Shown here piece after piece: positions 431 through 21,108 of a stretch of 25,658 nucleotides of DNA (position 1 is the first letter of the stretch; the number at the start of each line of letters is the position of its first letter). Below the pieces are notes generated by a model, which did no database searches, had not been told where the DNA came from, and saw nothing but the letters and a program-made list of their open reading frames with translations. Both the position numbers and the translations under genes were made by a program. Where the stretch lies: contig JBHLPR010000031.1 of NCBI GenBank assembly GCA_048939245.1, positions 1-25,658 on the forward strand, in the 5' to 3' direction. This DNA is from Promethearchaeota archaeon. GTDB lineage: Archaea; Asgardarchaeota; Hermodarchaeia; Hermodarchaeales; Hermodarchaeaceae.

Positions 431-802
431 GTGCAATTTACCCAGTTACCAGAACTGTTTGTCATCGGAATCTTCATTATTACTATTCTTTCTTCTGCAA
501 TCCTCATCCTCGTACTGTCTTACATCGTTAGCCCGCGTAACCCGAGTCCTCGTAAGGCCATGCCCTTTGAAAGTGGTCAAATTCCCACTGGCAAAGGACG
601 GACTCGTTTATTTATGCAATATTATCCCTACCTGCTCATGTTTCTACTTTTTGACCTAACATCAATTTTTCTTTATGCCTGGGCTTTAACCTTAAACGTT
701 CTTCCTTTAGGATCAATTATGTTTGTTGTATTCTTTATCGCAATTCTTGCATTTCCTCTGTTAATGGCTTTATATTTGTCTGGGAGACGAGAACTTTGGT
801 AG
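431..802 (+). CDS. nuoA: Complex I-like oxidoreductase subunit A
   Basis: Three TMs, PFESG loop, 'QYYPYLLMFLLFD' and a C-terminal W; first gene of the operon. Confidence 0.95.
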   Translation: MQFTQLPELFVIGIFIITILSSAILILVLSYIVSPRNPSPRKAMPFESGQIPTGKGRTRLFMQYYPYLLMFLLFDLTSIFLYAWALTLNVLPLGSIMFVVFFIAILAFPLLMALYLSGRRELW

Positions 803-1359
803 ATTATCAACTTCCAACTTCACACGAATTTCCTTGTTATGCTGCAGGCGATAAAAAAACCTTAGAACCTCCAACTGCCACAATACGAGTAGGAAGATTG
901 CGTCGTCTTGCATCAGCTCTAACCAATCTAAAACCCATCCGTTACCTCGTTAACTGGGGGCGTAAATATGCTCTATGGCCAGTTCATTTAACTGTAGCCT
1001 GTTGCAGCGTTGAGTTCGGAGCAGGAATGGGCCCGCGCTTTGATTTGGAACGATTCGGAATGATGCCCCTAGGTTCACTCCGCCAATGTGACTTATTACT
1101 AATAGAAGGTTCTGTCACGAAGAAGATGGCTTCCCGTGTTAAAATGATTTACGATCAAATGCCTGATCCGAAATATGTCATCGCAATGGGTGCCTGTGCA
1201 ATTAGCGGGGGCTTGTTTTGGGATTCTTATAGCGTTGTTCAAGGTGTTGATAAGATCATTCCAGTTGACGTGTATGTTCCTGGTTGTCCTCCTCGTCCTG
1301 AAACTCTTGCTGATGGCGTCCTTGAACTCCAACGAAAAATTCGAAATTCACGAGTGTAA
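796..1359 (+). CDS. nuoB: Complex I-like subunit B (N2-type 4Fe-4S)
   Basis: ACCSVE, RFDLERFG, YDQMPDPKYVIAMGACAISGG and VDVYVPGCPPRPE motifs. Start uncertain. Confidence 0.96.
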   Translation: MVDYQLPTSHEFPCYAAGDKKTLEPPTATIRVGRLRRLASALTNLKPIRYLVNWGRKYALWPVHLTVACCSVEFGAGMGPRFDLERFGMMPLGSLRQCDLLLIEGSVTKKMASRVKMIYDQMPDPKYVIAMGACAISGGLFWDSYSVVQGVDKIIPVDVYVPGCPPRPETLADGVLELQRKIRNSRV

Positions 1360-1364
1360 TTCAA

Positions 1365-1862
1365 GTGAAAAAGACTACCAAAACTGAATATGAACTCACC
1401 CTTGAGCTAGGTTCAGCTTTGGCTCAGAATATTCAGGAAATTGTTATTGCTAGACCAGGTCGTATTGACATTTCAGTACCTGCGTTAAAAATTCTTGATG
1501 TGGCTATTTCACTGCGTGATGATTTTGCATTTGACCAAGTAGTATCAGTGTCAGGTGTCGATTACGTTGAACAAGGAATTTTCTCGGTTATTTACCACAT
1601 CGTTATGCGAAGGGAAAAGACCTATCGTCAACTTGTTATCGCGCTTAAGACAGAAATTCCTCGAGACGCACCCCGGCTTCACACCTTAGCTTATGTTTGG
1701 CCTAGCGCTGAGTTTCAGGAACGTGAGACTCATGAATTACTAGGTATTGAATTTATTGAACACCAGAATTTGGGACCCTTTCTGTTACCTGAGGACTGGG
1801 AGGGGGGGTGGCCACTTCGCAAGGATTTCGTATGGCCCTCTTCTAAGGAGGTAGAAAAGTGA
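1365..1862 (+). CDS. nuoC: Complex I-like subunit C
   Basis: SGVDY, WPSAEFQERETHELLGIEF and LLPEDWEGGWPLRKDF motifs. Confidence 0.95.
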   Translation: MKKTTKTEYELTLELGSALAQNIQEIVIARPGRIDISVPALKILDVAISLRDDFAFDQVVSVSGVDYVEQGIFSVIYHIVMRREKTYRQLVIALKTEIPRDAPRLHTLAYVWPSAEFQERETHELLGIEFIEHQNLGPFLLPEDWEGGWPLRKDFVWPSSKEVEK

Positions 1863-2953
1863 CAAAAGTCAATGATGAACCCTTCGAAATAAGTGTTGGA
1901 CCTCAACATCCAGGTTCAGGTCATTTCCGACTTTTGATTCAGCTTGACGGAGATACAATAGTTAAGGCGAAACCAGATCCAGGCTATGTTCATAGGGGTG
2001 TTGAAAAAAGCGCAGAAAATAGGACTTTTCTCAACGTTATTCCAATGCTGGAACGCGTCTGTCTTCCTGATGTCAATCACCACGCTTTGGGATATGTTCA
2101 CGCTGTGGAAGAAATACTTGAGGTGACCCCCCCTGAGCGAGCACAATTTTTGCGAGTGATTATGTGTGAACTTAATCGAATTATGTCTCACCTTTATTGG
2201 TTGTCTATTTTTGGCATTTTCGTTGGACATTCAACGGCTTTCATGTGGGCTTTTGCTGATCGTGAAGCTGTTATCGATTTGATGGAGTGGGTAACTGGTT
2301 CTCGAATCTCCTATTTTGCTATAGTACCTGGTGGAGTAAGGTTTGATGTTCCACTCGGATTCGAAGAACGGACGAACGAAGTTCTCAACTTTCTTGAAAA
2401 GCGCTTCGATGAACACTCGCGCATGTTCTTTCATAATTCAATCCTTCGAAATCGAGCCATGAGAACAGGGATATTACCCGCAGATGAAGCAATACGACTT
2501 GGTGTTGTTGGACCTACTCTTCGTGGCTCAGGAATTGACTCCGATATTCGTGTAGATGAACCATATGATGCATACAAAAAGCTCGATGTTCCAATCGCGA
2601 TTAATGACGAATGCGATTCATATGCGCGATGTCTAGTACGGCTTGATGAAATGCGGAATAGTGTCTCAATCATTCGTCAAGCACTTAATGATTTACCAGA
2701 AGGAGAATTCCGGGTCAGAATTCCGTCACGAGTTAAAGAAGGAACATGTTTCACACGAGTTGAAGCAGCTCGTGGTGAACTCTGTCATTATTTGGTCACG
2801 GACGGTTCCAATAAGCCATACCGACTCAAAATAGCTACACCAAGTTTCCGAAACTTATCAGCTATACCATATGTCTTGCACGGCTGGCATCTAGCTGATA
2901 TGCCAACTAATTACATGAGTCTTGATTATTGGCCCGTTGATGCAGACAGATAG
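1859..2953 (+). CDS. nuoD: Complex I-like subunit D (no NiFe site)
   Basis: GPQHP, GYVHRGVEK, ELNRIMSHL, EAARGE, PYRLKI and terminal DADR. AAGGAGG RBS; no CxxC pairs. Confidence 0.95.
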   Translation: MTKVNDEPFEISVGPQHPGSGHFRLLIQLDGDTIVKAKPDPGYVHRGVEKSAENRTFLNVIPMLERVCLPDVNHHALGYVHAVEEILEVTPPERAQFLRVIMCELNRIMSHLYWLSIFGIFVGHSTAFMWAFADREAVIDLMEWVTGSRISYFAIVPGGVRFDVPLGFEERTNEVLNFLEKRFDEHSRMFFHNSILRNRAMRTGILPADEAIRLGVVGPTLRGSGIDSDIRVDEPYDAYKKLDVPIAINDECDSYARCLVRLDEMRNSVSIIRQALNDLPEGEFRVRIPSRVKEGTCFTRVEAARGELCHYLVTDGSNKPYRLKIATPSFRNLSAIPYVLHGWHLADMPTNYMSLDYWPVDADR

Positions 2954-2962
2954 GTGAAAACA

Positions 2963-4114
2963 ATGCAAGCGATACCAAATATCATTGAAATCATTGCGGG
3001 CTTAATTGCATTTACACTAATTCACCTTCCTGATTTTATTCGCGTCTTAATATTCCCTGGTTTCCTCACACTCACTTTAGCCGCTTACCTGATGGTATGG
3101 TTCGAACGGAAATTTTTAGCAAAAATTCAAATGCGAGTTGGACCGCAGTACGCAGGACGCTTTGGTGGAATATTGCAACCCGTTGCAGATTTTCTAAAAC
3201 TGTTTTTTAAAGAACACATCGTTCCTGAAAAAGCTGATCGATTATTTTTCCGTGTCGTTCCAATTGTATTTCTCACTTTGGCATCTCTCCCCATAATTGT
3301 GATACCTTTTGGATCATCAATTCTACCTATTCCTAACGCTACTTTTCAGGTATGGACACCACATATAGTCTCTTGGGTAATAATTAGTGAAGGCTTCGTG
3401 GCAACATATGGCTTGCTTATTTTCTTTGCTATCTCAGCACTCTTTCCGATGGTTGTTCTTATCGCCGGATGGGCAAGCAATAGCAAATACCCTTTCATTG
3501 GGGGAGTCCGTTCACTCTTTCAACAAGTTTCCTATGAGATTCCCATGTGGATATCAGCTTTAGCAGTCGTGGTGTTAAGCGGAACAATTAATCTGACACT
3601 AATTACATCCTCACAACAACAGATTTGGTTTATTATCCCCCTATTTCTTTCAGCCCTCATTTTCTTCATCGCTATTGTAGCAGAACTTGAGAGAATCCCT
3701 TTTGACTTACCTGAAGCTGAACCCGAAATTGTATCTGGGTGGATGACTGAATATTCTGGAGCGCCATTTCTACTCATCTATCTAAGCTTCTATGTCAAAA
3801 TGTTCACTGTTGCAGCACTATTCACAACTCTCTTCCTAGGAGGATGGCTCCCATTCCCCTTTTTCGCAGGTGGAATGTTAACCCCACCACTACCAGTTCT
3901 GTTTCCTAACTTTCTTCCAGAACCGATATGGTTTCTTGTAAAAGTTGGACTAGTTACTATAGTAATTATATTCTTGAGAGGAGTCTATCCCCGAACACGT
4001 CTAGACCAAATTTTGCGTGTAGCGTGGTCCATCTGGATTCCACTTTCATTTGTGGCTTTATTTCTTGCTGCATCTATGGTAATTTTTGGTATATTTCCGA
4101 TAGGAGGATTATAA
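2963..4114 (+). CDS. nuoH: Complex I-like subunit H
   Basis: ERKFLAKIQMRVGP, GILQPVADFLKLFFKE, SNSKY and RIPFDLPEAEPE..G..TEYSG. ATG 2963 follows a GGTGA RBS (ORF track starts at 2954). Confidence 0.96.
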   Translation: MQAIPNIIEIIAGLIAFTLIHLPDFIRVLIFPGFLTLTLAAYLMVWFERKFLAKIQMRVGPQYAGRFGGILQPVADFLKLFFKEHIVPEKADRLFFRVVPIVFLTLASLPIIVIPFGSSILPIPNATFQVWTPHIVSWVIISEGFVATYGLLIFFAISALFPMVVLIAGWASNSKYPFIGGVRSLFQQVSYEIPMWISALAVVVLSGTINLTLITSSQQQIWFIIPLFLSALIFFIAIVAELERIPFDLPEAEPEIVSGWMTEYSGAPFLLIYLSFYVKMFTVAALFTTLFLGGWLPFPFFAGGMLTPPLPVLFPNFLPEPIWFLVKVGLVTIVIIFLRGVYPRTRLDQILRVAWSIWIPLSFVALFLAASMVIFGIFPIGGL

Positions 4115-4116
4115 GA

Positions 4117-4587
4117 GTGGTAAGATTAATTGATTCAATTCGACCATTAATCTCTGGACTCAAACACATTTTCTGGAACCGGTTAACTATAAAATATCCA
4201 GACCAAAGACTTGAACTTCCTAAAAAAGAAAGAGGGCGTCATTTCTTAAAACTAGAACGCTGTATCGGATGTGGACAATGTGAACGAATCTGTCCAACAA
4301 TAGCCATTCATTTACAGAGCCTTAAGGAAAAATATTCTGAAAAAAACAAAAGAAACCGGTATCCAAGTATTGATTTTGGTCGGTGCTGTTTTTGTGATCT
4401 TTGCATTGAGGTATGTCCAACGAACGCATTAGAACACACTGATTTCTTTGAACTCTCAAACCTAACTAAGCCGCCGTTATATCTGTCTCCCATCGATTTT
4501 GCTAAGAAACCTGAGGCAAAAGGTTGGCGAAAAAAACAGAAACGAAAAGTCATGCAAATCAGTCGCAGGGGATTATATCATGATTGA
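4117..4587 (+). CDS. nuoI: Complex I-like subunit I (2x[4Fe-4S])
   Basis: TIKYP, CIGCGQCERICP and CCFCDLCIEVCP. GTG 4117 follows AGGAGG. Confidence 0.95.
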   Translation: MVRLIDSIRPLISGLKHIFWNRLTIKYPDQRLELPKKERGRHFLKLERCIGCGQCERICPTIAIHLQSLKEKYSEKNKRNRYPSIDFGRCCFCDLCIEVCPTNALEHTDFFELSNLTKPPLYLSPIDFAKKPEAKGWRKKQKRKVMQISRRGLYHD

Positions 4588-5116
4588 AGTAAGTGATATC
4601 TTATTCTACACAGTAGCAGTAATAATTATTCTATCTGCAATCCTTGCTCTAGAATCTCGTGATCTCATTTACGGAGCAATATCATTATCCATAACGTTTG
4701 TTGGAGTTGCATTTCTTTTCATATTACTCGGAGCAGCTTATGTCGCTATATTCCAGATTGCTATGTATATCGGAGCTGTGGTAGTTCTCATCCTCTTCAC
4801 CGTAATGGTAGTTGGAAGTAGTCAAAGTAAACCAAGGGATGAAAAACGGAGTGCCCGAATCGAACGAACATTAGAAGCTGGAGCTGCAATTATTGCTGTA
4901 TTCACTATAATTGCGTTAATATTCACTTTGGGTACTAGCTTATTCACAATTGCAGGTCCTTACAATCTTACACTAATCGATATAGGAATTGCTCTCTTCT
5001 CACAATATGGTCTCGTATTCATAATAATGGGTCTTGTTGTGGCATCAAGCCTTATGGGTGCTTTAACGCTTGCAAAAATCGAATCAAGGAAGGTAAATAA
5101 TGATACCAATAATTAA
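4580..5116 (+). CDS. nuoJ: Complex I-like subunit J
   Basis: Hydrophobic, with 'AIFQIAMYIGAVVVLILFTVM'. ATG 4580 overlaps the nuoI end. Confidence 0.93.
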   Translation: MIEVSDILFYTVAVIIILSAILALESRDLIYGAISLSITFVGVAFLFILLGAAYVAIFQIAMYIGAVVVLILFTVMVVGSSQSKPRDEKRSARIERTLEAGAAIIAVFTIIALIFTLGTSLFTIAGPYNLTLIDIGIALFSQYGLVFIIMGLVVASSLMGALTLAKIESRKVNNDTNN

Positions 5117-5408
5117 TTACTTAATCTTGGCTGTAATCCTTCTGGCTCTTGGTCTATACGGAATCATGAGAAAGCGTAATGCCATTCGAATGCTGTTTAG
5201 CATTGAGCTGATTTACAATGCCGTAAACATTACAGTCATAGCTCTAGCTCGTTTTTTCCAACCTACAACCGTAGTCGGGCAGGTTGTAGTATTATTTACG
5301 ATTGCGATAGCAGCCTCAGAAGCGGCATTAGGCTTAGCCCTTATTTTGGTTATCTATCGCCTGTACGGGGATATTGACATTCGAAAACTGACTAAACTAA
5401 AGGGGTAG
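5100..5408 (+). CDS. nuoK: Complex I-like subunit K
   Basis: RKRNAIRMLFSIELIYNA and AASEAALGLA, with both conserved Glu present. Confidence 0.96.
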   Translation: MIPIINYLILAVILLALGLYGIMRKRNAIRMLFSIELIYNAVNITVIALARFFQPTTVVGQVVVLFTIAIAASEAALGLALILVIYRLYGDIDIRKLTKLKG

Positions 5409-5447: not shown

Positions 5448-6947
5448 GTGATGTTGCTCGAGCCAACACTTCTTTTACAAACTATTTTGGTTCCAATTGT
5501 TGCTACACCATTTGTATATTTAATCGGCAAACGAGTTGGAATACGCGTTGGTTGGCTAGTAGCCGCCCTGTTATTTTATTCGACCTTCTTGCTCAGCATA
5601 GGATCAATTTTTGGAATTGTCCAAGCTTCTTACCCTTGGTATCCTATTGGAGAATTTGGCTTCCGTCTCGATGGATTGAGTGCTCAATTCGCATTGATTA
5701 TCTCTCTTCTCTCGGCCCTTATCGCCATTTACTCTATGCCCTACATGAAACATCGTGTTGAGGGGAATGAGAATGCTAACCAACAATCTGCTGCGTATTT
5801 TGCTTTATTTCTCCTTTATTCTACTGGCATGCTGGGGGCGGTTCTCGCAACCAACCTTATAGAATTCTACTTATTTTTCGAATTAATGTTAGTTCCATCC
5901 TATTTTATCATCGCTCAATGGGGATATGGGGACCGCGAGAAAGTAAGCATGATCTATTTTATGTGGACGCATATAGGAGCGCTTGTATTGTTGGCAGGAC
6001 TCCTCGCAACAGGATTCCTCGCAGGAGGATTCAATATTGCGTCTATCACTGAGATTGTTATACCAGAAATATTTCGTGTGGGGATCATTGTTGCAATTTC
6101 GTTTGGGTTTCTAGTAAAGATGGCAGTTTTTGGTGTTCATGTCTGGCTACCACATGCTCATGCTGAAGCGCCGACACCCATTAGTGCAATGCTTTCCCCG
6201 CTAATGATTGGAATTGGAGGCTATGGTTTAACTCGATTAGTCATTTTAATTTTTCCAACAACATTTCAAGCTATTAGCATATATTTCGCGATTTTGGCTC
6301 TGCTTACTATGTTTTACGGAGGGATTATGGCAATTGCCCAAACCGATATCAAACGACTATTAGCATATTCCAGTGTTTCTCAAATGGGATACATCCTTTT
6401 TGGTCTAGCATCTTTTCAATTCTTTGGAATCGTTGGAGCAACATTTCATTATATCAGCCATGCAACCTGTAAAGCGATCCTCTTCTTAACTGCCGGAGCG
6501 ATTATTTTACAAGCAGATGGAATCCGAGATATTTCTGGCATGGGGGGACTTGTTCAACGAATGCCGGTTACTGCAACAGCGGCCATAATTGGTTTCCTAG
6601 GGATCCTTGGGTTTCCATCAACCAACGGTTTTCAAAGCGAATGGATGATCTTTGCGGGGGCATTTGGTAACGCTCTAGCGAATAACTCGTTAACGCTATT
6701 GATTATTGCAGCAATAGGTGTTATTGCCACTGTCTTTACAGCGGGATATTCTCTTTGGACTATCCGACGCATATTCTTTGGAGAACTACCCGAGGGGCTA
6801 AAAAATGTTGCAAGACCAAGCAAAAAGATTACAGTCCCACTCATAATTTTGGCGATCATCACTATCGTCCTGGGACTTTATCCTGAGCTTGTAGTTGCGC
6901 CTGTAAAAGCCGTCATTGAAAGTATAATACCATTTCCAGGAGTCTAG
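5448..6947 (+). CDS. nuoM: Antiporter-like subunit M, copy 1 (atypical TM8)
   Basis: DGLS, FFELMLVP, KMAVFGVHVWLPHAHAEAPTP, DIKRLLAYSSVSQMGY and GFQSE. Confidence 0.9.
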   Translation: MMLLEPTLLLQTILVPIVATPFVYLIGKRVGIRVGWLVAALLFYSTFLLSIGSIFGIVQASYPWYPIGEFGFRLDGLSAQFALIISLLSALIAIYSMPYMKHRVEGNENANQQSAAYFALFLLYSTGMLGAVLATNLIEFYLFFELMLVPSYFIIAQWGYGDREKVSMIYFMWTHIGALVLLAGLLATGFLAGGFNIASITEIVIPEIFRVGIIVAISFGFLVKMAVFGVHVWLPHAHAEAPTPISAMLSPLMIGIGGYGLTRLVILIFPTTFQAISIYFAILALLTMFYGGIMAIAQTDIKRLLAYSSVSQMGYILFGLASFQFFGIVGATFHYISHATCKAILFLTAGAIILQADGIRDISGMGGLVQRMPVTATAAIIGFLGILGFPSTNGFQSEWMIFAGAFGNALANNSLTLLIIAAIGVIATVFTAGYSLWTIRRIFFGELPEGLKNVARPSKKITVPLIILAIITIVLGLYPELVVAPVKAVIESIIPFPGV

Positions 6948-6953
6948 TAGCCC

Positions 6954-9254
6954 ATGTGGTTTAGTCTAGAATTAGCCGCACAATTGATGGTAATCACCCC
7001 TCAAGAAATGCTGGGGGTCCTATTTTTCTGGGTATTTCCAATTCCCTTTATAGGGGCACTATTGACTCCACTTGTAGGAAGAATTAATCCGAAACTTAGA
7101 GACTATTTTGCCGTTTTTATTAGCTTCCTAGCAGCACTTGCAGCTACAGCTCTTATACCAATTGTACTAGGTGTAAGTTTTCCTTTCCCTCTTCCACCAT
7201 GGCAATTGCCTTGGATCCCAACCCTGGGTATAACGGTGGGTGTTTTAATCGATCCACTTAGTGTGTTTATGGCGAACATTGTCGCCTGGCTTACATTTCT
7301 CATAATGGTTTACAGCTTAGGATATATGAAGGGAGAGGCGAGTCTCACTCGCTATTGGATTTTCATGAACCTTTTCCTCGGAAGCATGCTGCTAATTGTA
7401 ATGTCGGATAACTTGCTTCAACTGTTCTTTGGCTGGGAGGGAGTCGGACTTTGCTCATATCAACTTATTGGCTTTTATTATACTGATCAACGGGACAAAT
7501 GGGTTGGGGTGCCCGGTGAAACTGCATTAGGCGTCGATATGGCCTATCCGCCAAGTCATGCTGGAATGAAAGCATTTATCGTTACTAGGATTGGAGACGT
7601 TTTCCTTCTTGCAGGAATACTTGTTATTGGACTAACAGCAGGAACATTTAGCTTTATTGAACTAGCTGAACATACACCATGGGCTGCTCAGCTTGCGAGT
7701 GTGGGCTTATTAGTTCCAGTTTGTCTTTCCATATTTATTGGTGCAGTTGGAAAATCCGCACAATTTCCTTTACATGAATGGTTGCCTGACGCAATGGCAG
7801 GACCTACATCTGTTTCTGCATTAATCCATGCAGCTACTATGGTGAAAGCAGGCGTATATCTAGTAGCAAGGATGGCGCCCCTTTTCTATACTCTTTTGTA
7901 CACATATGGAGGAGTACAGATCTTTTTCTACACTGTTGCTGGAATCGGAGTTTTCACGGCATTTCTAGCAGGTACACAAGCACTCGTCTCAAGTGAAATT
8001 AAGAAAGTTCTTGCATATTCTACCGTCTCCCAAATTGGCTATATGATGTTAGGTCTGGGTGCAGCAGGGCTTGCACCAGATTTTGCAGGGGGTTATGTTG
8101 CGAGTCTTTTTCATTTAATGAGTCATGCCATTTTCAAAGCTTCACTTTTCATGGCGGCAGGGGCAGTTATCCACACGGTTGAATCTCGTTTTCTTGATGA
8201 CATGGGAGGTCTCAAGCACGTTATGCGTATAACCTACATAGCAATGATCTTGGGAGTTCTTTCTCTTTCAGGTGTTTTTCCTTTCTCGGGATTTTGGTCT
8301 AAGGACGCAGTTTTACTTGCTACATATTCAACTGGTAATATTGTCTTCTTCGCTTTAGGAATTGTTACTGCAGGTCTAACAATTCTCTATAGCTTTCGGA
8401 TGATCGGTATGGTGTTCCATTCACCTAAGAGCGCTCACTTAAAGCACTTAGAAGATGAAGGACACCAGCTTCACACTCCGGGTAAACTATTCTGGGTACC
8501 ATACGGGATTCTCGCTGTAGTTAGCCTTGTCCTTGGTTTCGCAGGACCACTTCTTGAGAGTGGTCTTCATATCTTCTTTGAACCACTCCTTCATGGAATA
8601 AGCAGTAACGGCGGAGCTATAGATCAGAGTCTTGCATTGGTTACAACCTGGACAGCCTCCGCGGCTGCATTATCCATTGGGGGGTTGCTTGGATACCTAC
8701 TTTACATCCACCCCTCCTTTGATATTCATAAAGCAGTTAAGCAGAACAGCATACTACGGGCATTCAACAAGTTCCTTGTTAATCGATGGTACATAAATCC
8801 CCTGTTCTACAAAATCTTCGTGTACGGAACAATTCAGGCTAGCACTAGCGCTTATAGACGAATTGAGATTGGAGGAATTGACCAACTCAATGTCAAAGTT
8901 GCACCAGCAATTATTCGAGGATCGAAGACAGTATACCATACCGTTGAACAACGCGGATTTGACTCCGCGAATACAGGATTTGCAAAACTTGGAATCAAAG
9001 CATCACGGGTAGCAGATTGGTTTGATGTTAAAGCTATCGATGCAATTGCCAACAAAATCAAGGGAGTTGGAGATTGGCTCTCCCGTAAGGTACGACGCCT
9101 CCAAACTGGTATTACTCACCAATACGTGTTCGCTCTGGTTGCAGGCCTTGTAGTTGTTATTTTACTATTTGAGCCACTGCTTCTGTTTACACCAATGGTC
9201 CTAGTAGTGATCATTGTGATTGTCGTTATTACCGCAATTCTCGCCTTGAGGTGA
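6954..9254 (+). CDS. nuoL: Antiporter-like subunit L with extended lateral helix
   Basis: GWEGVGLCSY, KSAQFPLHEWLPDAMAGPTSVSALIHAATMVKAG, KKVLAYST, GFWSKD and LQTG. Confidence 0.96.
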   Translation: MWFSLELAAQLMVITPQEMLGVLFFWVFPIPFIGALLTPLVGRINPKLRDYFAVFISFLAALAATALIPIVLGVSFPFPLPPWQLPWIPTLGITVGVLIDPLSVFMANIVAWLTFLIMVYSLGYMKGEASLTRYWIFMNLFLGSMLLIVMSDNLLQLFFGWEGVGLCSYQLIGFYYTDQRDKWVGVPGETALGVDMAYPPSHAGMKAFIVTRIGDVFLLAGILVIGLTAGTFSFIELAEHTPWAAQLASVGLLVPVCLSIFIGAVGKSAQFPLHEWLPDAMAGPTSVSALIHAATMVKAGVYLVARMAPLFYTLLYTYGGVQIFFYTVAGIGVFTAFLAGTQALVSSEIKKVLAYSTVSQIGYMMLGLGAAGLAPDFAGGYVASLFHLMSHAIFKASLFMAAGAVIHTVESRFLDDMGGLKHVMRITYIAMILGVLSLSGVFPFSGFWSKDAVLLATYSTGNIVFFALGIVTAGLTILYSFRMIGMVFHSPKSAHLKHLEDEGHQLHTPGKLFWVPYGILAVVSLVLGFAGPLLESGLHIFFEPLLHGISSNGGAIDQSLALVTTWTASAAALSIGGLLGYLLYIHPSFDIHKAVKQNSILRAFNKFLVNRWYINPLFYKIFVYGTIQASTSAYRRIEIGGIDQLNVKVAPAIIRGSKTVYHTVEQRGFDSANTGFAKLGIKASRVADWFDVKAIDAIANKIKGVGDWLSRKVRRLQTGITHQYVFALVAGLVVVILLFEPLLLFTPMVLVVIIVIVVITAILALR

Positions 9255-9259
9255 ATCAA

Positions 9260-10723
9260 ATGCATTTATTGATTATAATCTTTCTTCCAATAATAGCCGC
9301 TCCCTTGATTTACCTTATAGGTCGTCTTAGTCTCCGAGCTGCACGATGGACCACATTATTGATTAGTATTGTTGTCTTTTTGGCATCATTTCTAATTTAT
9401 CTTGGATTATTTTCACTTGATCCTAGCGACTTCCAGTTCACAATTAGTTTACCATGGATTGAATTCTTCGGCATTGGGATTCCTTTTGAGGTGGGTGTTG
9501 ATGGTATTAGTGCACCACTTCTTCTTTTAGCAACCACCCTTAACATGTTAGCCACAGCAGGCTCCTTTACATTAGTCAAAACTAATGAACGGCAATATTA
9601 CTCACTCCTTTTACTTTTCGGAGGAAGCGTTGTTGGAGTATTCACTGCACTTAACCTCATTGTGTTTTTTGTTTTCTGGGAATTAGCGATTATCCCAATG
9701 TTCTTTTTTATCGGCATTTGGGGAGGTTCTAAAAGAAAGTATGCTGCGATCAAGTTCTTGCTTTTTACCACACTGGGTAGTCTATTGATGCTTCTAGGAT
9801 TCATAGCAGTGTTTCTCTGGTCAGGTGGTAGTACGTTTGATATACCAACACTAATTGCAAACCGACTACCACAAGAATTACAATTTATTCCAGCTATCTT
9901 ATGCTTTATTGGCTTTGCAATTAAGCTTCCCGTAGTTCCTTTTCATACCTGGTTACCAGATGCTCATGTCGAAGCTCCATCTCCTATCAGCGTATTACTT
10001 GCAGGCGTTATGTTGAAAATGGGAGGGTATGGAATTATTCGGATAATAATTGGTCTATTCCGTGAATTCGCTATAATTTATGGCCAATTTATCATTGTCC
10101 TAAGTTTAACATCTGTATTATTTGCAGCTTTCACAGCGATGTTTCAAGATGATCTTAAACGAATGGTTGCTTTGACATCAATTAATCACATGGGTTTCGT
10201 TGCAGCTGGTGCATTTACGGTTTCATCTCTTGGTATTGCAGGGGCAGTATTACAGATGTTTTGTCACGGCTTCGCGATTGGTCTTTTATTTCTATTGACG
10301 GGTGTTATCCAAAGAGGAACAGGGACACGCAAAATTAGTCAATTAAAGGCCCTAGGTGTAGGAATGCCCCTGACAAGCCTACTATTGATATTGGGGTCCT
10401 TAGCTTCGATGGGTATACCAGGTTTTGGAAACTTCGTAGCGGAATTTAGTGTCATACAAGCAGCCATTGGTGTTCAGTGGATATTTGGTATACTTGTTTT
10501 AGGACCAGGAATTACTTCAGCTTATTTCTTATGGACCTTACAACGCATATTTCGACGAGCAGAACCAACAAATCCAGAAATGAAACCCGCATCAGCCTGG
10601 GAAATCGGCACACTGACATCATTTGTTGTGCCTATTCTAATCTTAGGAATATTGCCGTTTTTAATGATGTCTTTAGTTTATCCCGCGACATTAGCATTGC
10701 TTAGTTCAGTAGGAGGACCCTAA
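9260..10723 (+). CDS. nuoM: Antiporter-like subunit M, copy 2 (canonical motifs)
   Basis: GVDGIS, FWELAIIP, YAAIKF, KLPVVPFHTWLPDAHVEAP, LAGVMLKMGGYG and FVAE. ATG 9260 follows GAGGTGA. Confidence 0.94.
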   Translation: MHLLIIIFLPIIAAPLIYLIGRLSLRAARWTTLLISIVVFLASFLIYLGLFSLDPSDFQFTISLPWIEFFGIGIPFEVGVDGISAPLLLLATTLNMLATAGSFTLVKTNERQYYSLLLLFGGSVVGVFTALNLIVFFVFWELAIIPMFFFIGIWGGSKRKYAAIKFLLFTTLGSLLMLLGFIAVFLWSGGSTFDIPTLIANRLPQELQFIPAILCFIGFAIKLPVVPFHTWLPDAHVEAPSPISVLLAGVMLKMGGYGIIRIIIGLFREFAIIYGQFIIVLSLTSVLFAAFTAMFQDDLKRMVALTSINHMGFVAAGAFTVSSLGIAGAVLQMFCHGFAIGLLFLLTGVIQRGTGTRKISQLKALGVGMPLTSLLLILGSLASMGIPGFGNFVAEFSVIQAAIGVQWIFGILVLGPGITSAYFLWTLQRIFRRAEPTNPEMKPASAWEIGTLTSFVVPILILGILPFLMMSLVYPATLALLSSVGGP

Positions 10724-12175
10724 ATGGAGTTCATCTCTAATATCATTCTCGGAACACTAGCAATCACTGGTATCCTTATTCCACTCTTAGATCAAGTAAT
10801 CTATTCTCGTTCAGGGAAGCATGTTGCAGGATACATTGCAATACTTGCCCAATTAATCCCAGCTTTAATTCTTGGCTGGATTGTTATAGAAGAAATACCC
10901 CTGTCAACTTCGTTCGGAAATTTAATTTCCCCTGATGAGTTTGGTATCTTTTTTGCCATAGTATTTCTCTTAGTAGGAATTCTCATAACCATCGCATCTA
11001 TTAGCTTCATGCAGGACGACCCGAATCAGGGTTCTTATTATGCCTTGATTTTACTTGCAGTACTTGGATCAATACTAGTAGCTCTCTCAATTGATTTAGT
11101 TATGCTTGATGTTGCTTGGGATCTAATGTTTGTAACAACATTGGTTCTTATTGGAATTCGGAAAACTGATTGGTTTTCTAGTGAAGCCGCATTCAAATAC
11201 TACATTCTCGGAGCATTGTCCACAGCTTTTGTATTTCTCGCCATTGCATTCTTCATAGGAATAACGGGTACTACTTCTCTAATCGGTATAGCAATAGCAC
11301 TTCCAAGTGTTCCTATTGAGCTCCAACCACTATTGTTACTAGCAATTATTTTCACTATCATAGGATTTGGTATTAAAATGGCAATCGTACCATTCCAATT
11401 TTGGATCCCTGATGCCTATGAAGGCGCTCCGACCCCCATTAGTGGATTCTTAGCAGGTGGAACTAAAAAGGCAGGATTTGCAGCCACCCTCCGAGTTCTA
11501 ACGATCGTCATTATTTCGGCACCGGTCATAATATTAGCCCGGTGGAGCTTTACTATTGCATTTCTAGCCACGATTACTATGACAGTAGGCAATATTGCGG
11601 CCTTGACTCAGAAGAGTTTTCCTCGCATGCTAGCCTATTCCTCAATTGCCCACGCGGGATATATGTTAATAGGTATTGCATTTCCAAACACGGTGTATGG
11701 CATTCCTGGTCTCCTTTTTCATATCCTGAATCATGCCATCATGACCGCAGCAGCGTTCATTGCTGCGGCTGGTGTTTCTATAGCCCTGAAAAAGACCTCA
11801 GTTGATAGTTATGATGGATTAGCTAAAATCATGCCAAAGACGGCTTTTATATTAGCTTTGACGCTGTTTGCTCTAGCAGGAATCCCGCCGTTTAATGGGT
11901 TTTGGAGCAAAGCAATATTATTCATGACCACCGTTGAAGCCGATGCTCTTTGGCTTGGTGTGGTTATGATTCTCAATAGCGTCTTCTCATTGGGCTACTA
12001 TTCATGGATAATCAAACGTATGTATCTAGATGAAACTACTATCTCAGCCAGAATTGCAGAACCTCGCGGGATTTTAATTGCATTAATTATTGCCGGAGCG
12101 CTTATCCTAATTATTGGAATCTACCCGTCGCCATTCTTGATATGGATGAATAGAATTACAGGATATGTTCCTTAG
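10724..12175 (+). CDS. nuoN: Antiporter-like subunit N
   Basis: SSEAAFKYYILGA, KMAIVPFQFWIPDAYEGAPTP, RMLAYSSIAHAGY and AGIPPFNGFWSK. AGGAGG RBS. Confidence 0.95.
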   Translation: MEFISNIILGTLAITGILIPLLDQVIYSRSGKHVAGYIAILAQLIPALILGWIVIEEIPLSTSFGNLISPDEFGIFFAIVFLLVGILITIASISFMQDDPNQGSYYALILLAVLGSILVALSIDLVMLDVAWDLMFVTTLVLIGIRKTDWFSSEAAFKYYILGALSTAFVFLAIAFFIGITGTTSLIGIAIALPSVPIELQPLLLLAIIFTIIGFGIKMAIVPFQFWIPDAYEGAPTPISGFLAGGTKKAGFAATLRVLTIVIISAPVIILARWSFTIAFLATITMTVGNIAALTQKSFPRMLAYSSIAHAGYMLIGIAFPNTVYGIPGLLFHILNHAIMTAAAFIAAAGVSIALKKTSVDSYDGLAKIMPKTAFILALTLFALAGIPPFNGFWSKAILFMTTVEADALWLGVVMILNSVFSLGYYSWIIKRMYLDETTISARIAEPRGILIALIIAGALILIIGIYPSPFLIWMNRITGYVP

Positions 12176-14086: not shown

Positions 14087-15448
14087 CTATTCATTAGGTG
14101 GCGTTACACGCAAAAACCGCCCAACAAGTGTGACAATATCGACAACTGGAATTTCTAACCCAAGCCTTTGCATTCCATGCGTTAAATTAAGAACACAAAA
14201 GGGACATGCTGAAACAACCATTGTTGCTCCCGTTTCTATGATTTCACCAACTCGTTCCCACGCCATGCGCTCTTCCAGAGGCATCGCGGCCTTTTCTTCT
14301 TCTGTTAGTTCATGATATTCACTTGTGAGTTTTCTTGCTGCATCCTTTACCTGAGTAGGAGAACTCGTAGGTTCAGCATCGTAGATTCGCTTCGCAGCAA
14401 TTTCCAGGGCAAGCTCAGGAATTCCAGCTTTGACTCCGCCTCCTGCTCCACAGCACCGAGAGTATTCTCGAGTGCGAATCATTTCGACTAATGTTATGCC
14501 AGGTAAAAGATCAAGGATTTGCCGTGGAGCATCATAGACACCAACATGTCGACCGAGATGACAAGGATCATGGTAGGCGACGCGTTCATTAACGCCTGGA
14601 AGAGGTTCAATCTCAATGCCTTCTAAAGCTTTAGCGAGGAATTGGGTAATGTGTTGTACTTTGAACGGTAATTTCCCATAGTATCTTGGCCAATCAAGGA
14701 CAGATGTCCGGAAACAACCCGAGCAGGAGAAGACAACGAGTCTAACGCCCTTTTCTTTGAGGGTTTCCACATTGTGTAGGACTAAATCTTTAACGACCTC
14801 AATTTGCCCTGTACGGATAAGAGGGGAACCACAACACCGTTCATCATTCCCAGGGAGCACAAAATCAACATCGAGTTTATTTAGAATGCGAGCCGTTGTG
14901 ATGGCTAGATGTTGCATTTTATACGAGGAGGTACATCCGACAAAGTAGGCGATATCCGCGGTCTCAGCAACTTTAACATCAGCAGGGAGCCAATCTGTAC
15001 GGGAGAGATGATCTTCTCCATACGGGTTATACTTGGTTTTCACGTTGTTTGGCCAAGCTCGCTGACGTTCGAGGGGGCCAAAACCCTGTTTCACCATATC
15101 AGCGCGTACTGTTTCCCATAAATCACAGCTTTTTATTCGTGACTCACACACTGTTTGACATTGTCCACAGACAGTACACAGATACAGGTCTTCAACAAAC
15201 TTGTCAATCGTATTCCTGTCTATTACACTTCCCCCTCGAGCACGCCCCATGATTCCATAGACATGTTTGACCATTTCTCGCAGGTTTCGGATTTTTCCAC
15301 GCGCTGTTACACCTTCGCGTTGTAACTGATCAAAAACTGGACAGAACTTAACACATTCACCACAATCGACACAAGCATCTAGCTCCATCGCCTGCTTCCG
15401 AGTTAATTGTGGAAAACTAACCTTTTCCTTATTCGTTGTCATTCTCAT
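14087..15448 (-). CDS. HdrD/GlpC-like Fe-S oxidoreductase (2x[4Fe-4S] plus two CCG domains)
   Basis: CVDCGECVKFCP, CTVCGQCQTVC, YFVGC, ERCCG, CSGC, YHDPCHLGRH, CCGAGGG and SACPFC. Start is 15448 or 15442, overlapping the upstream gene. Confidence 0.9.
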   Translation of the reverse strand: MRMTTNKEKVSFPQLTRKQAMELDACVDCGECVKFCPVFDQLQREGVTARGKIRNLREMVKHVYGIMGRARGGSVIDRNTIDKFVEDLYLCTVCGQCQTVCESRIKSCDLWETVRADMVKQGFGPLERQRAWPNNVKTKYNPYGEDHLSRTDWLPADVKVAETADIAYFVGCTSSYKMQHLAITTARILNKLDVDFVLPGNDERCCGSPLIRTGQIEVVKDLVLHNVETLKEKGVRLVVFSCSGCFRTSVLDWPRYYGKLPFKVQHITQFLAKALEGIEIEPLPGVNERVAYHDPCHLGRHVGVYDAPRQILDLLPGITLVEMIRTREYSRCCGAGGGVKAGIPELALEIAAKRIYDAEPTSSPTQVKDAARKLTSEYHELTEEEKAAMPLEERMAWERVGEIIETGATMVVSACPFCVLNLTHGMQRLGLEIPVVDIVTLVGRFLRVTPPNE

Positions 15449-16157
15449 CAGCCCCCGTGACTTCCCGGATATATTCCTCCTCCCACTTTTCTTCAATCGC
15501 ACTACGGACCATGATTATAGGTGCCGCGATGATATGCTGGAATTTTGAATAAAGTAAGACTGCAATCATCGTCCAGATAATGAATGCGTGAATGATTCCA
15601 TACCATCCTCGAATACCAATGACATATTCATATGAAAACGCCATATGCCCTGATACTGCAATGGACAATAATAGAATCAGTGGCAAGTAGTTATGAAGGT
15701 TTGTTACCGCCCGCCCCTCTTTTGAACCTATACGGCTCCAAAAAGCCATTAGTACGCCAATTACAAGTGATATGGTCAATACATCGTGAGCAATAATTCG
15801 CATTTCCAGTGTAGCCCAAGGAAAGAGAATAGTTTCACTAAGTAAAATGAATCGAGGGAGCCCATGAAAGAGAAAGAGCCCTACAAATCCTACCAATATG
15901 AATCCGTGTTTTACCCATCGAAATATGGACTGGCGTCTTATCGTTCCACCAAACGTCCAATCAGAGATCACCGTCTTAACAAAAGCAGTAAATTTGGTGC
16001 GAAAAGGTACATCGATGAGCCAACCAGCTGTATGCTCAGCAGGACCCTTGTGTGGTTTCGTCCAACGGAGAAGGATTCGAATGAAACCTATCGTAAAAAG
16101 GGCTAAGGCAATCCAACGGTAGAAAATCAAAATCTGAAGCACTAGCTCTAGTTGCAT
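15429..16157 (-). CDS. NarI/HdrE/DsrM-like membrane cytochrome b subunit
   Basis: About 5 TMs with His pairs (RWVKHGFILVGFVGLFLFH; IIHAF...YSKFQHII). Overlaps the HdrD-like gene. Confidence 0.82.
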   Translation of the reverse strand: MQLELVLQILIFYRWIALALFTIGFIRILLRWTKPHKGPAEHTAGWLIDVPFRTKFTAFVKTVISDWTFGGTIRRQSIFRWVKHGFILVGFVGLFLFHGLPRFILLSETILFPWATLEMRIIAHDVLTISLVIGVLMAFWSRIGSKEGRAVTNLHNYLPLILLLSIAVSGHMAFSYEYVIGIRGWYGIIHAFIIWTMIAVLLYSKFQHIIAAPIIMVRSAIEEKWEEEYIREVTGADENDNE

Positions 16158-16255
16158 AGAATCGCGTCTTTAATCTCTATCCAATACCCTCAAATTTTCA
16201 TCAAAAGACTTTCTAATTTACTATTTGCACTCCTTTTTAAACAGTTCAAGACTAT

Positions 16256-16311
16256 GAAAAGAAAGGGGAAAATTGGAGGACCTGACATGAAAATCACTGG
16301 CCCTCCAATTT
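16256..16311 (-). terminator. Stem-loop followed by a pyrimidine/T tract downstream of the DoxX gene
   Basis: Perfect 10-bp IR AAATTGGAGG (16270-16279) / CCTCCAATTT (16302-16311), extendable inward, followed on the minus strand by TTCCCCTTTCTTTT. Confidence 0.6.
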
Positions 16312-16329
16312 CGTTTTCGATATGCAAAT

Positions 16330-17028
16330 CTATGTCCATAATCCCAAGAATCGTAGGATTGCATTTTTGAATTCCTCAAGCTTTGGACCGAGCCACTGGT
16401 CTATACCAAGGTATCGACCGGCTTGATAAATTCCTACAACGAAGAATGCAATTGAGCCAAGGAAATTGACACCGAAGGTGGAGACACTCAGCCATCCTAG
16501 CAAGAAGAGGAATGTCCATTGCATGAGTACACCGCCAAATGAGCCTAATCGAGTGAAGAAACCGAAGGTAAGGGATAGTCCGACGATTAACTCACCTCCA
16601 GCGATAAGCATGAGAAAGAACGTTGGATTGATTAGAATGACCGCGTTGAAAAATCCTTGAATATATGGACTAGGCGCCGAAGATGCGGCAAGCATGAGTA
16701 GTCCATAGTCGGTGGGATAGGCAGGATTAAGGAATTTTTCTAAACCGCCATGCAGGAACTCATAGCCCAATCCTAATCGCAATGGTAGCAGAATAGCCAG
16801 AATTGGAATTTTGTTAGGCCAAACCCATCGCAAAAAGAATATTGTTGGTATCAGAATTATGGCGATAATAACAAGTGGCGATAAGGCTAAGTTGAGCCAG
16901 GGAAAGAGAATCGTAGGATCTGGAACCACCCATTGTGGCCCCAAAGTGAGTAGAACAATGGTTAGTAGAATCAGATCAACAATCACTAGAAATATTAGGG
17001 TAATCCATTTATTTCGATTTAATTCCAT
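16330..17028 (-). CDS. DoxX / TQO small-subunit DoxD-like membrane protein
   Basis: LRLGLGYEFLHGGLEK, GELIVGLSLTFGFFTRLG and AGRYLGID. ATG 17028 has a GGAGA RBS; two extra N-terminal TMs. Confidence 0.85.
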   Translation of the reverse strand: MELNRNKWITLIFLVIVDLILLTIVLLTLGPQWVVPDPTILFPWLNLALSPLVIIAIILIPTIFFLRWVWPNKIPILAILLPLRLGLGYEFLHGGLEKFLNPAYPTDYGLLMLAASSAPSPYIQGFFNAVILINPTFFLMLIAGGELIVGLSLTFGFFTRLGSFGGVLMQWTFLFLLGWLSVSTFGVNFLGSIAFFVVGIYQAGRYLGIDQWLGPKLEEFKNAILRFLGLWT

Positions 17029-17033
17029 AATTA

Positions 17034-17086
17034 TTTCTCCTAATAGAGAGATAGAATAGGAGAAACCGGGTTGCCTTTTTATATAT
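17034..17086 (-). promoter_or_regulatory. TATA box plus an inverted repeat covering the DoxX RBS
   Basis: TATATAAA on the minus strand at ~17085-17078. TTTCTCCTA-N14-TAGGAGAAA at 17034-17065. Confidence 0.5.
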
Positions 17087-17179
17087 TGCACTGTTGTATT
17101 TGTATAAAATTGAATAAATAGATAGGCTGCCATACAACCTATTTGATGGTTTCTTCATGTCTCTTCTCATTAATCCAGG

Positions 17180-20560: not shown

Positions 20561-21108
20561 ATGCGGTCCCAGGGTTTTCCTGCTTTTTCATATGAAGAAT
20601 AGATTTTCTTTGCAAGGGATTCGAAGACATCATCGACGTTATAATCGTCTTTAGCGCTACTTTCCAAGAAGTCCATTTTTAATTCCTTAGCTACATCTTT
20701 CCCTTCTTTTTCCTTAACAACTCGCTGTTCTTTCAAATCAGACTTACAGCCAACTAGCAGTAGGGGAATGCCTTCGCAGCGTTGATAGACTTGTTGCATC
20801 CAATGATCTATCCGATCAAAAGATTGTTGGTCTGTTACATCGTAGGCAATGATGGCGCCCGCAGCACCCTCGAAATATAAACCGCGAATAAAATCGAAGC
20901 GTTCTTGTCCACCCGTATCGTAGATAACGAGTTTGATATTTGTGTCATCCTTAAGTTTGATCTGTTTGGTGAAAAAGTCAACACCTAAGGTGAACAGGTA
21001 GCTTTCATCAAATTGACCAGTGGTATAACGACGGGCAAGGGAGGTTTTACCAACCCCTGCATCGCCAACAACTATGACTTTGTAGACAACTTCAGCGAGT
21101 TCTTCCAT
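20557..21108 (-). CDS. Rab-like small GTPase (Ras superfamily)
   Basis: G1 GDAGVGKTS, G2 TLGVDF, G3 DTGGQERF, G4 CKSD and G5 SSAK. GGTGA RBS. Confidence 0.95.
   Translation of the reverse strand: MEELAEVVYKVIVVGDAGVGKTSLARRYTTGQFDESYLFTLGVDFFTKQIKLKDDTNIKLVIYDTGGQERFDFIRGLYFEGAAGAIIAYDVTDQQSFDRIDHWMQQVYQRCEGIPLLLVGCKSDLKEQRVVKEKEGKDVAKELKMDFLESSAKDDYNVDDVFESLAKKIYSSYEKAGKPWDRI

Follow-up and report, generated by a model that had tools for sequence, protein, structure and literature searches.

The NuoL subunit encoded in the window (the whole 25,658-nucleotide stretch of DNA analysed here) carries a lateral helix, the strap, with three modules, in an operon that encodes three pumps beyond L in the gene order M-L-M-N. 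The strap is made of 27-residue modules, each an amphipathic helix of ~40 A that is roughly one antiporter-like subunit wide. The locus is a real, rare and conserved variant of the 2M-type complex I, and paralogous gene clusters of the same genus combine a strap of the same length with five antiporter-like genes. We favour, at a little under an even chance, the reading that the third module overlies a fifth pump position. How many ions complex I translocates for each pair of electrons depends on its count of antiporter modules, and this decides whether an organism can subsist on small energy differences or run electron flow in reverse. Hodarchaeota are the archaea closest to eukaryotes.

Gene content and affiliation of the operon

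The features of the operon are listed in Table 1. The first eight genes gave Pfam matches to Oxidored_q4, Oxidored_q6, Complex1_30kDa, Complex1_49kDa, NADHdh and Fer4. The assignment of nuoJ and nuoK was based on the domains Oxidored_q3 and Oxidored_q2, which Pfam detected in the orthologous genes of locus L010; these were matched to the window by BLAST. The preliminary description was right that only one extra nuoM is encoded. The enzyme comes from a Hodarchaeota (Asgard) archaeon and is complex I-like, of the 2M type and the 11-subunit type that has no NADH module.

In the tree, nuoM1 grouped with gene 1 of the Bathyarchaeia, the M of type B and gene 2 of type C, and nuoM2 with Bathyarchaeia gene 3, type C gene 4 and gene 3 of G023. 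M1 and M2 were found in two separate clades, together with both M genes of the Bathyarchaeia and Heimdall-group clusters. M1, L and M2 of the window were each sister to their Bathyarchaeia 2M-type counterparts, and N fell into the same clade without a resolved sister. The locus was placed as sister to the Bathyarchaeia and Thaumarchaeota-type clusters.

Table 1. Complex I-like operon of the window and the C-terminal parts of its NuoL
Feature	Position	Strand	Remarks
nuoA, B, C, D, H, I, J, K	431..5408	+	complex I-like operon without N-module (no nuoEFG)
nuoM1, 499 aa	5448..6947	+	canonical-M clade; PF00361 4.3e-66
nuoL, 766 aa	6954..9254	+	PF00361 1.1e-64, PF00662 1.4e-12
lateral helix start, residues 612-633, WYINPLFYKIF...	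8787..8852	+	columns common to 0-, 1-, 2- and 3-unit NuoLs
strap module 1, residues 634-660, motif EIGGIDQLN	8853..8933	+	closest to unit 1 of the five-pump paralogue
strap module 2, residues 661-687, motif VEQRGFDSAN	8934..9014	+	closest to unit 2 of the five-pump paralogue
strap module 3 and conserved end, residues 688-719, DVKAIDAIAN ... RRLQTG	9015..9110	+	aligns to the single unit of canonical NuoL
TM16, anchor helix at strap end, residues 720-744	9111..9185	+	AF2 helix 724-744; all NuoLs have a homologous tail
extra C-terminal transmembrane helix, residues 745-766, and stop codon	9186..9254	+	AF2 helix 746-765
nuoM2, 490 aa	9251..10723	+	'second M' clade of 2M complexes; PF00361 2.6e-68
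nuoN, 483 aa	10724..12175	+	N clade of the tree; PF00361 6.9e-59

NuoL and its strap modules

The identity of NuoL was verified by several approaches. Against solved chains, phmmer returned 6hum_F with 1.6e-90 and E. coli NuoL with 1.9e-81, and the closest solved relatives were NdhF, NuoL and Nqo12. The protein has the Proton_antipo_M core and the Proton_antipo_N domain at the N-terminus, and its gene lies within a nuo operon having A-D, H-K, M and N. The AF2 helices and the alignment showed the C-terminal extension with TM15, the long lateral amphipathic helix and the TM16 anchor, and the WY...QTG frame aligned with bacterial and archaeal NuoLs. The AF2 model of NuoL alone had a pLDDT of 80.9 and matched NdhF, NuoL and ND5 in Foldseek with a TM-score, normalised to the target, of ~0.8.

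Translation of the positions 8787-9110 on the + strand gave exactly 108 residues from W612 (RWYINP) to G719 (LQTG). Three E/D-x3-(I/F)-D-x2-3-N units start at the residues 634, 661 and 688, with the aspartates at 643, 670 and 696. This confirmed the span and the three tandem units, spaced 27 and 26 residues apart, that had been noticed in the preliminary description. At the strap end, Q717, T718 and G719 are nearly invariant or invariant across the aligned NuoLs. Module 2 together with part of module 1 forms a 27-residue block that is missing from two-unit relatives, and in the alignments a gap of 27 columns stood opposite this block in all relatives with 80-81 aa. When the strap was aligned to itself, the best lags were 27 and 53, and 16% of 3000 shuffles equalled that score, which excludes internal self-similarity alone as a proof of triplication. 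Since the gaps of the relatives are exact and in phase at 27 residues, the repeat is more than chance, though its internal signal is weak.

In the AF2 model the strap formed the continuous helices 611-667 and 673-716 with one break and no hairpin. The pLDDT was only 36-63 there, so no usable strap geometry could be taken from the model. The strap region alone gave no significant match among the solved chains, and hence no solved structure was found that shows how a multi-module strap is seated.

The second terminal helix is specific to the locus type of the window. The tail after QTG measures 47 aa, compared to 21-35 aa in most of the relatives listed; the list covered loci with zero, two or three units and, besides these, every tail of at least 36 aa. 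Among the orthologues, 5 of 24 positions in the extra helix were invariant. The additional helix hints that the anchor end of this NuoL has been remodelled.

Conservation of the three units

None of the five orthologues, which range down to 71% identity, showed an indel; each had a span of exactly 108 aa and kept the unit 2 motif VEQ(R/H)GFDS-x-N. The dN/dS values were 0.22-0.24 for unit 1 and 0.11-0.26 for unit 2, which resembles units 1 and 3, and ~0.1 for the core. Invariant positions in the five orthologues amounted to 52% in unit 1, 48% (13/27) in unit 2 and 41% in unit 3. By these measures all three units are under purifying selection.

The preliminary description had offered as an alternative that the strap is a relic of an ancestor with more pumps. 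In this reading, a five-pump ancestor would have lost one nuoM and left the third module to decay. The strap is indeed collinear, unit for unit, with that of a five-pump cluster in the same genus. Purifying selection on all three units, however, disfavours a decaying third module. The missing indels, and a unit 2 that evolves no faster than its neighbours and whose share of invariant positions lies between theirs, speak against decay, and the NuoL core is sister to the two-module type of the Bathyarchaeia and not to the five-pump NuoL. We regard the relic as very improbable.

Strap length and pump number

For the relation of strap length and pump number, 78 NuoL loci were sampled without selection. 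Two alignments, one with 125 and one with 85 NuoL tails, separated the zero-, one-, two- and three-unit forms by exact in-phase gaps of 27 residues. NuoLs with zero modules (27-28 aa) were accompanied by one further pump (L031/L038, L057). With one module (51-56 aa) two non-L pumps were found in 51 complete clusters. The canonical span of about 50-56 aa with one unit, as previously claimed, was recovered: 63 sampled loci, those of Agrobacterium, Burkholderia and Rickettsia among them, span 51-56 aa. Two modules (80-84 aa) occurred in 2M-type loci, among them Nitrospira, Bathyarchaeia and Nitrososphaerales, and a span of 80-81 aa was accompanied by three non-L pumps in L012/L042, L043, L055, L066 and L024. 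Three further three-module NuoLs (P0170, P0142, P0167) lie on contigs too short for pump counts.

In none of the 78 loci did the clustered pump genes exceed the capacity of the strap. Eight of the 14 two-module straps, however, were encoded in plain L-M-N clusters, so the strap length caps the pump number without revealing it. A correlation of repeat number with nuoM count therefore held as an upper limit and failed as an equality. A module without a gene is thus common and needs no extra pump. Where the genomes of such plain cases were checked, they contained only complete L-M-N triplets, and one of them (G038) had three antiporter-like genes in the whole genome.

These surplus modules bear on the possibility that the third module of the window is a spare over a four-pump arm of L, M1, M2 and N, with the extra 27 residues accommodated otherwise. 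The strap might run past NuoN over the K/J/A bundle with the two terminal helices anchoring it, or a module might lie on lipid or fold back. Its whole-module length would then reflect in-phase duplication and an amphipathic helix that is kept in register. The surplus two-module straps agree with this, as do the clusters of Ca. Manganitrophaceae that are canonical in their genes and still carry strap insertions in NuoL (PMC9040806). The same holds for the lineage-specific second C-terminal helix. The four subunits of the window are each closest to the Bathyarchaeia 2M type, whose gene set is the same and whose strap measures 81 aa. Near-identical tandem units were present in P0182 and P0220 and show that straps grow through fresh in-phase duplication, another point in favour of a spare.

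Other observations oppose a spare module. Motif and exact length of the third module are under purifying selection, and the predicted strap helices, of low confidence, show no hairpin. The spans cluster tightly at 51-56, 80-84 and 108 aa, even in deep lineages whose strap exceeds the gene count; old lineages hold whole-module spans without drift, which suggests that strap length itself is constrained. Finally, five pump genes match the same strap in the paralogous cluster. We consider the spare module almost as likely as a fifth pump position.

A five-pump cluster in the same genus

The paralogous clusters L014, L015, L016 and L025 have the gene order K-M-M-L-M-N with five antiporter-like genes, and their NuoL strap is 108 aa long. 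Here the 108-aa strap co-occurs with four pumps beyond L, i.e. two extra pumps. No other gene clusters were found whose pump genes explain three modules.

The units of the window strap were compared with those of this paralogue. Corresponding units scored 49, 62 and 43, and non-corresponding ones 9-33. Unit 1 of the window scored 49 with unit 1 of the paralogue and 13-33 with non-corresponding units, the highest of these being its match with unit 2. Like the window, the five-pump cluster has a collinear three-unit strap of 108 aa, an operon without the NADH module and orthologues of M1, M2 and N. Unlike the window, it has an additional M-type gene of 510 aa, whose ortholog was found neither in the window operon nor in the assembly. 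The window thus shares the 108-aa helix and encodes M1, M2 and N in place of the three M genes plus N. In the tree the extra M was sister to the M2 clade with an SH-aLRT of 85. The NuoL cores are ~40% identical and branch apart, and the paralogue has one C-terminal anchor helix compared to two in the window. A recent gene conversion from the five-pump NuoL found no support, as the strap identity of 33-39% is no higher than that of the core.

The proposal of the preliminary description that the strap has room for two extra antiporters is partly supported by this cluster. The longer arm of higher stoichiometry that was also proposed there would be possible for the enzyme of the window.

Search for a fifth pump

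A third pump encoded elsewhere, as had been suggested, was searched for with a PF00361 scan. No orphan nuoM or mrpD was found in the host genome, which is 88% complete. Besides the four genes described here, its only antiporter-like genes are those of a separate J-K-L-M-N cluster on contig C92. The scan also found no orphan pump gene in three members of the genus. In one of these genomes (G012, 89% complete), the antiporter-like genes beyond the four are limited to a separate J-K-L-M-N cluster and an Ech/Mbh-type hydrogenase subunit. Its lone antiporter-like gene of 620 aa was considered as a spare pump and rejected, as it belongs to the Ech/Mbh-type hydrogenase cluster.

The borrowing of a pump was tested by genome-wide pump counts in 10 genomes with two-module straps and 10 one-module controls. 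The former comprised 8 with plain L-M-N clusters and 2 with clusters cut by contig ends. No association of the two-module strap with extra pump clusters was observed, and 7 of the 10 one-module genomes also exceeded three antiporter-like genes. Borrowing from a second cluster was therefore dismissed as a general explanation; G038, moreover, has nothing to borrow.

A fifth pump might still be encoded and have escaped detection, either as a third M-type gene resembling gene 1 of the five-pump cluster, located in the 12% of the genome that the assembly lacks, or as the M of the C92 cluster, shared between both enzymes. The completeness of 88% leaves room for this, and nuo genes can be scattered in related archaea: the nuoN of the Bathyarchaeia lies 3 kb off the cluster, and P0008 and P0012 are nuoL genes that stand alone. 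In addition, two of the four genus members with the locus type of the window (G007, G014) also carry the five-pump cluster. Two independent assemblies with the locus type (G000, G012), however, lack a further nuoM-like gene, and the comparison with the controls argues against a shared subunit. We judge an unseen fifth pump improbable.

A possible role of the third module

Each module would serve as the docking element for one M-type subunit. With TM16 anchoring its end near NuoN, the strap would work like a clamp, its length determining the number of pumps it can hold. As its exact length and motif are conserved, the third module would most likely still cover a subunit the size of a pump, and the arm would then have five positions from four genes. 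The most probable route to the fifth position would be a second copy of the M2-type subunit, a choice favoured by the tree, in which the additional M of the paralogue branches as the sister of the M2 clade. Less likely, the position would be filled by a subunit from the second cluster of the genome or from a gene missing in the assembly. A structure prediction of the M2 homodimer from two copies and their own alignment, run without controls, gave no answer (score 0.00) and counts neither for nor against this route. We know of no complex I that uses one antiporter-like subunit twice.

More speculatively, and in our view rather unlikely, the strap is a molecular ruler that lets one nuoM product fill two neighbouring positions. 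A four-gene operon would then give a five-pump arm with a higher ion-per-electron ratio, and NuoLs that are one module above the gene count would mark re-used pumps, a step before nuoM duplication.

The Hodarchaeota locus and its five-pump paralogue show that the strap is lengthened in increments of exactly one pump width, to as many as three modules, and that the number of steps is never below what the pump genes need and often one above the gene count. The vague idea that strap length reports the stoichiometry is thereby turned into a testable rule with a defined exception. Enzymes with a surplus module are singled out, as their structures would show whether a pump subunit can serve twice.

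Comparison with known systems

The solved canonical subunits NuoL, Nqo12, ND5 and NdhF (3rko, 4he8, 6hum, 8e9g) share with the NuoL of the window the fold, the domains, TM16 and the motifs at both ends of the strap. They differ by a strap of 51-56 aa with one module, a length taken from the sampled sequences and not from the solved chains.

In the 2M complex I, a second NuoM is accompanied by a NuoL lengthened by an insertion of ~26 aa, and many members are without NuoEFG (Chadwick, Hemp, Fischer, Orphan 2018, ISME J 12:2668, as described in the citing papers PMC9040806, PMC6606698, PMC7117926 and PMC7300363). The preliminary description had stated this insertion correctly according to these citing papers, and the span of 80-84 aa in the 2M-type loci is in line with it. 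According to PMC7300363, the Thaumarchaeota 2M clusters belong to clade 2. The window resembles the 2M enzymes in its second NuoM gene, the longer lateral helix of NuoL and an inserted module of the same kind and length (26-27 aa). The known 2M NuoLs (Nitrospira, Bathyarchaeia, Nitrososphaerales and a Heimdall-group relative) have one extra module and 80-81 aa, in archaea as in bacteria, whereas the NuoL of the window has two extra modules and 108 aa with an equal number of pump genes. A span of 108 aa in the known archaeal 2M NuoLs, which by the preliminary description would have counted against its reading, was thus not seen. In the literature covered, only the one-module lengthening of 2M is described, and the sole five-pump design is built differently.

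This design is the Complex_I_3 of Ca. Manganitrophaceae, which was proposed to have five pumping subunits and whose strap-bearing subunit contains an insertion of 26 aa (Yu et al. 2022, mBio 13:e03421-21, PMC9040806). The mismatch of strap and pump genes reported there equals that of the window. In Complex_I_3, two MrpD-like subunits replace NuoL and the strap gains one module, whereas the enzyme of the window, with no MrpD-like genes, has a true NuoL with two extra modules.

The window operon and the strap of its NuoL

The nuo genes of the window form one operon (see the table), from which nuoEFG are absent. Its nuoL product is a true NuoL, and the closest named relative (84% identical) is annotated as Candidatus Hodarchaeota. 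Translation confirmed the preliminary description of the strap, the C-terminal lateral helix: it spans 108 residues from the W of RWYINP to the G of LQTG (612-719) and contains three units, starting at residues 634, 661 and 688, with the Asp of their motif at 643, 670 and 696. An AF2 model predicted the strap as two helices (611-667 and 673-716) with a pLDDT of only 36-63, and therefore no geometry was drawn from it. After the strap come the TM16 anchor (724-744) and one more helix (746-765).

Positions of the genes and features in the window and at related loci (L, locus; G, genome)
Feature	Position	Strand	Remark
nuoA-B-C-D-H-I-J-K	window 431-5408	+	tightly packed operon
nuoM1	window 5448-6947	+
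TM8 motif LMIGIGGYG of NuoM1	window ~6189-6226
nuoL	window 6954-9254	+	766 aa
Insertion DQRDKWVGVPGETALGVDMAYPPSHAG of NuoL	window 7482-7565		residues ~177-204
Second C-terminal helix of NuoL	window 9186-9251		residues 745-766
nuoM2	window 9251-10723	+
TM8 motif VMLKMGGYG of NuoM2	window ~10000-10032
nuoN	window 10724-12175	+
HdrD-like gene set	window 14087-17133	-
Small GTPase and TackOD1-domain genes	window 19661-21108
Five-pump nuo operon	L014:6357-14489		G003
Five-pump nuo operon	L015:5361-13493		G008
Five-pump nuo operon	L016:6352-14484		G004
Five-pump nuo operon	L025:1-7108		G014
Zero-module NuoL-like subunit	L038:13202-17669		G025
Zero-module NuoL-like subunit	L057:9941-13381		Hodarchaeota MAG DZ1B.339
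Stand-alone nuoL (P0008)	L122:10001-12100
Stand-alone nuoL (P0012)	L123:10001-12046
630-aa ORF on C92	L009:2820-4712	-
Ech/Mbh-type cluster	L037:5074-10464		G012

The strap is built from modules

The units of the window strap have diverged too far to establish a repeat by themselves: self-alignment gave best lags of 27 and 53, and 16% of the shuffles reached an equal score. It is the comparison with relatives, not self-similarity, that settles that the repeat is more than chance. Among the 120 best NuoL homologues the W-to-G span was 55 (n=1), 81 (n=112), 83 (n=2) or 108 residues (n=4) and had no other value, with the start anchor missed by the regular expression in one. MAFFT alignments of the relatives contained gaps of exactly 27 columns that keep the phase of the motif. 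When 85 NuoL tails from unselected bacterial and archaeal genomes were aligned, the spans were 27-28, 51-56, 80-84 and 108 residues, corresponding to zero, one, two and three modules. In two metagenome fragments (P0182 and P0220), two adjacent 27-residue units of the NuoL tail are nearly identical, e.g. LVFDKITPVVSGLSISLGNRLFR twice, which is direct evidence of strap growth through recent tandem duplications in phase.

Strap length and the number of pump genes

The antiporter-like genes (pumps) were counted around each NuoL locus. Zero modules were found with L and one pump (L031/L038 and L057); here W/Y-to-G is 27-28 aa, the single further gene comes after the NuoL-like gene (L038 and L057), and these proteins are the short end of one modular series. 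One module accompanied L-M-N or M-L-N in 51 complete clusters, including the second cluster of the window's genome (contig C92). Two modules occurred with four pumps in Nitrospira (L055, L066), Bathyarchaeia (L012/L042, with nuoN 3 kb off from its cluster), Nitrososphaerales (L043) and a Heimdall-group relative (L024). Three modules were found in a same-genus cluster whose five antiporter-like genes are consecutive, K-M(510)-M(541-597)-L(677-683)-M(486)-N(489). This operon, a candidate '3M' complex I, was seen in at least four genomes, and its strap has exactly 108 residues and three units. These pair one to one with those of the window NuoL (local scores 49, 62 and 43; non-corresponding pairs scored 9-33). 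The 108 residues had been read as room for two extra pumps. The five-pump cluster, with four pumps beyond L and a collinear strap, is therefore a natural example of this geometry, but the window locus itself has only M1, M2 and N beyond L.

Strap length as a pump count was not upheld by an unselected census of 78 NuoL loci, picked from GTDB species genomes by means of two core motifs. One module was present in 63, two in 14, none in 1 and three in 0. Four of the two-module straps had four pumps, two were cut by contig ends and eight were in plain L-M-N clusters (Methanodesulfokora, NC10, Acidimicrobiia, Udaeobacter, Zixibacteria, Terriglobia, Binatia and one other bacterium). Genome-wide scans of the surplus-strap genomes mostly showed complete triplets only, and G038 has three antiporter-like genes in all. 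Borrowing of a pump from a second cluster was not supported, since one-module control genomes had extra clusters equally often (7/10). Ca. Manganitrophaceae have been reported to show a strap-versus-gene mismatch of this kind (PMC9040806). At none of the sampled loci did the clustered pump genes exceed what the strap allows. The defensible rule is thus an inequality, modules ≥ pumps minus two, with a surplus of one being common; the window locus follows it one step higher.

The third module at the window locus

The window type of locus is also present in three other genus members and two further database proteins. A whole-genome scan of the 88%-complete assembly (G000) found seven antiporter-like genes, the four of the window and L-M-N of C92, and no further one; G012 (89% complete) has these too, and in addition a single subunit of an Ech/Mbh-type hydrogenase cluster. 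The five-pump cluster is carried by two of the four window-type genomes (G007, G014) and is absent from G000 and G012. In a tree of all these subunits, the sisters of window M1, L and M2 are their respective counterparts in the Bathyarchaeia 2M type (81-residue strap), and window N falls within the clade of Bathyarchaeia 2M-type N, with no clear sister there. The additional M of the five-pump cluster branches separately, as the sister of the M2 clade. That a fifth pump gene is missing or shared is unlikely, and less likely than the two leading readings below.

The preliminary description had also offered a relic. The strap has exactly 108 residues, and unit 2 its motif VEQ(R/H)GFDS-x-N, in every one of the five orthologues, whose identity goes down to 71%. 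Pairwise dN/dS was 0.11-0.26 for unit 2, 0.08-0.24 for units 1 and 3 and about 0.10 for the core, and the invariant positions amounted to 52%, 48% and 41% in units 1, 2 and 3. With unit 2 so like its neighbours, a decaying third module is very improbable and also ranks below the leading readings.

Taken together, our results show a modular strap that grows in pump-sized steps, is kept at three modules here and goes with five pump genes in the paralogue. Each module would dock one M-type subunit and TM16 would anchor the strap end, so that the strap would clamp the membrane arm; this role is based on solved structures and on the E. coli mutagenesis listed in PMC3274701. We lean, tentatively, to a third module that covers a further pump-sized subunit, because length and motif are kept exactly, old lineages hold whole-module spans and a deficit never occurs. 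The likeliest occupant would be another copy of the M2-type subunit. An arm of the four encoded pumps only, with the spare module accommodated otherwise, ranks just below and is almost as likely. The unique second hydrophobic helix that ends the window-type NuoL hints at a remodelled anchor: five-pump and Bathyarchaeia NuoLs have no counterpart of it, and nowhere in the protein is conservation lower, with 5 of 24 positions invariant.

Further features of the window and related loci

Compared with E. coli NuoL and cyanobacterial NdhF, the window NuoL has a ~19-residue insertion, DQRDKWVGVPGETALGVDMAYPPSHAG, between two core helices. It is well kept among archaeal relatives, with W183, V184, G185, M196-Y198 and P200-H202 nearly invariant. 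NuoM1 lacks the central TM8 lysine of NuoM2, as do the M of the second cluster (VMIATAAYA) and the Heimdall-group M (AMIETGAYA); gene 2 of the five-pump cluster retains it. The closest two-module relatives of the window NuoL (P0008 and P0012, 54-55% identical) are encoded outside nuo operons, beside A-type ATPase and succinate dehydrogenase genes.

Downstream in the window are genes for an HdrD-like CCG/4Fe-4S protein (471 aa), a 242-aa protein and a DoxD/DoxX membrane protein. The conserved set recurs beside orthologous nuo operons and may be a separate quinone-linked module. The genes of a Ras/Rab-like small GTPase (183 aa, Ras family 5.6e-55) and of a TackOD1-domain protein are arranged tail-to-tail. 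On C92, an ORF with eight matched ATP-synt_C stretches (3e-130) adjoins a V_ATPase_I gene and appears to encode a fused proteolipid (c-subunit) with several hairpins, of an A/V-type ATPase. The Ech/Mbh-type cluster, which encodes CCG, 30-kDa, 49-kDa (NiFe-like), 620-aa antiporter-like and NuoH-like subunits, is present in several genus members and was not found in the window's assembly.

Comparison with known systems

Three-module straps are rare. A strap-region search of 1.8 billion representative proteins gave 107 matches, among them about a dozen clusters with spans of 108-114 residues, most of these being fragments and two with freshly duplicated, near-identical units. In the papers searched, only a one-module strap insertion was found described, and an Asgard respiration preprint makes no mention of one. 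At the gene level the window locus resembles a 2M complex I: it has a second NuoM gene, and its NuoL strap carries the insertion, but doubled. It differs from the five-pump design of Manganitrophaceae in having no MrpD-like subunits, and from the five-pump cluster of its own genus in missing the third M.
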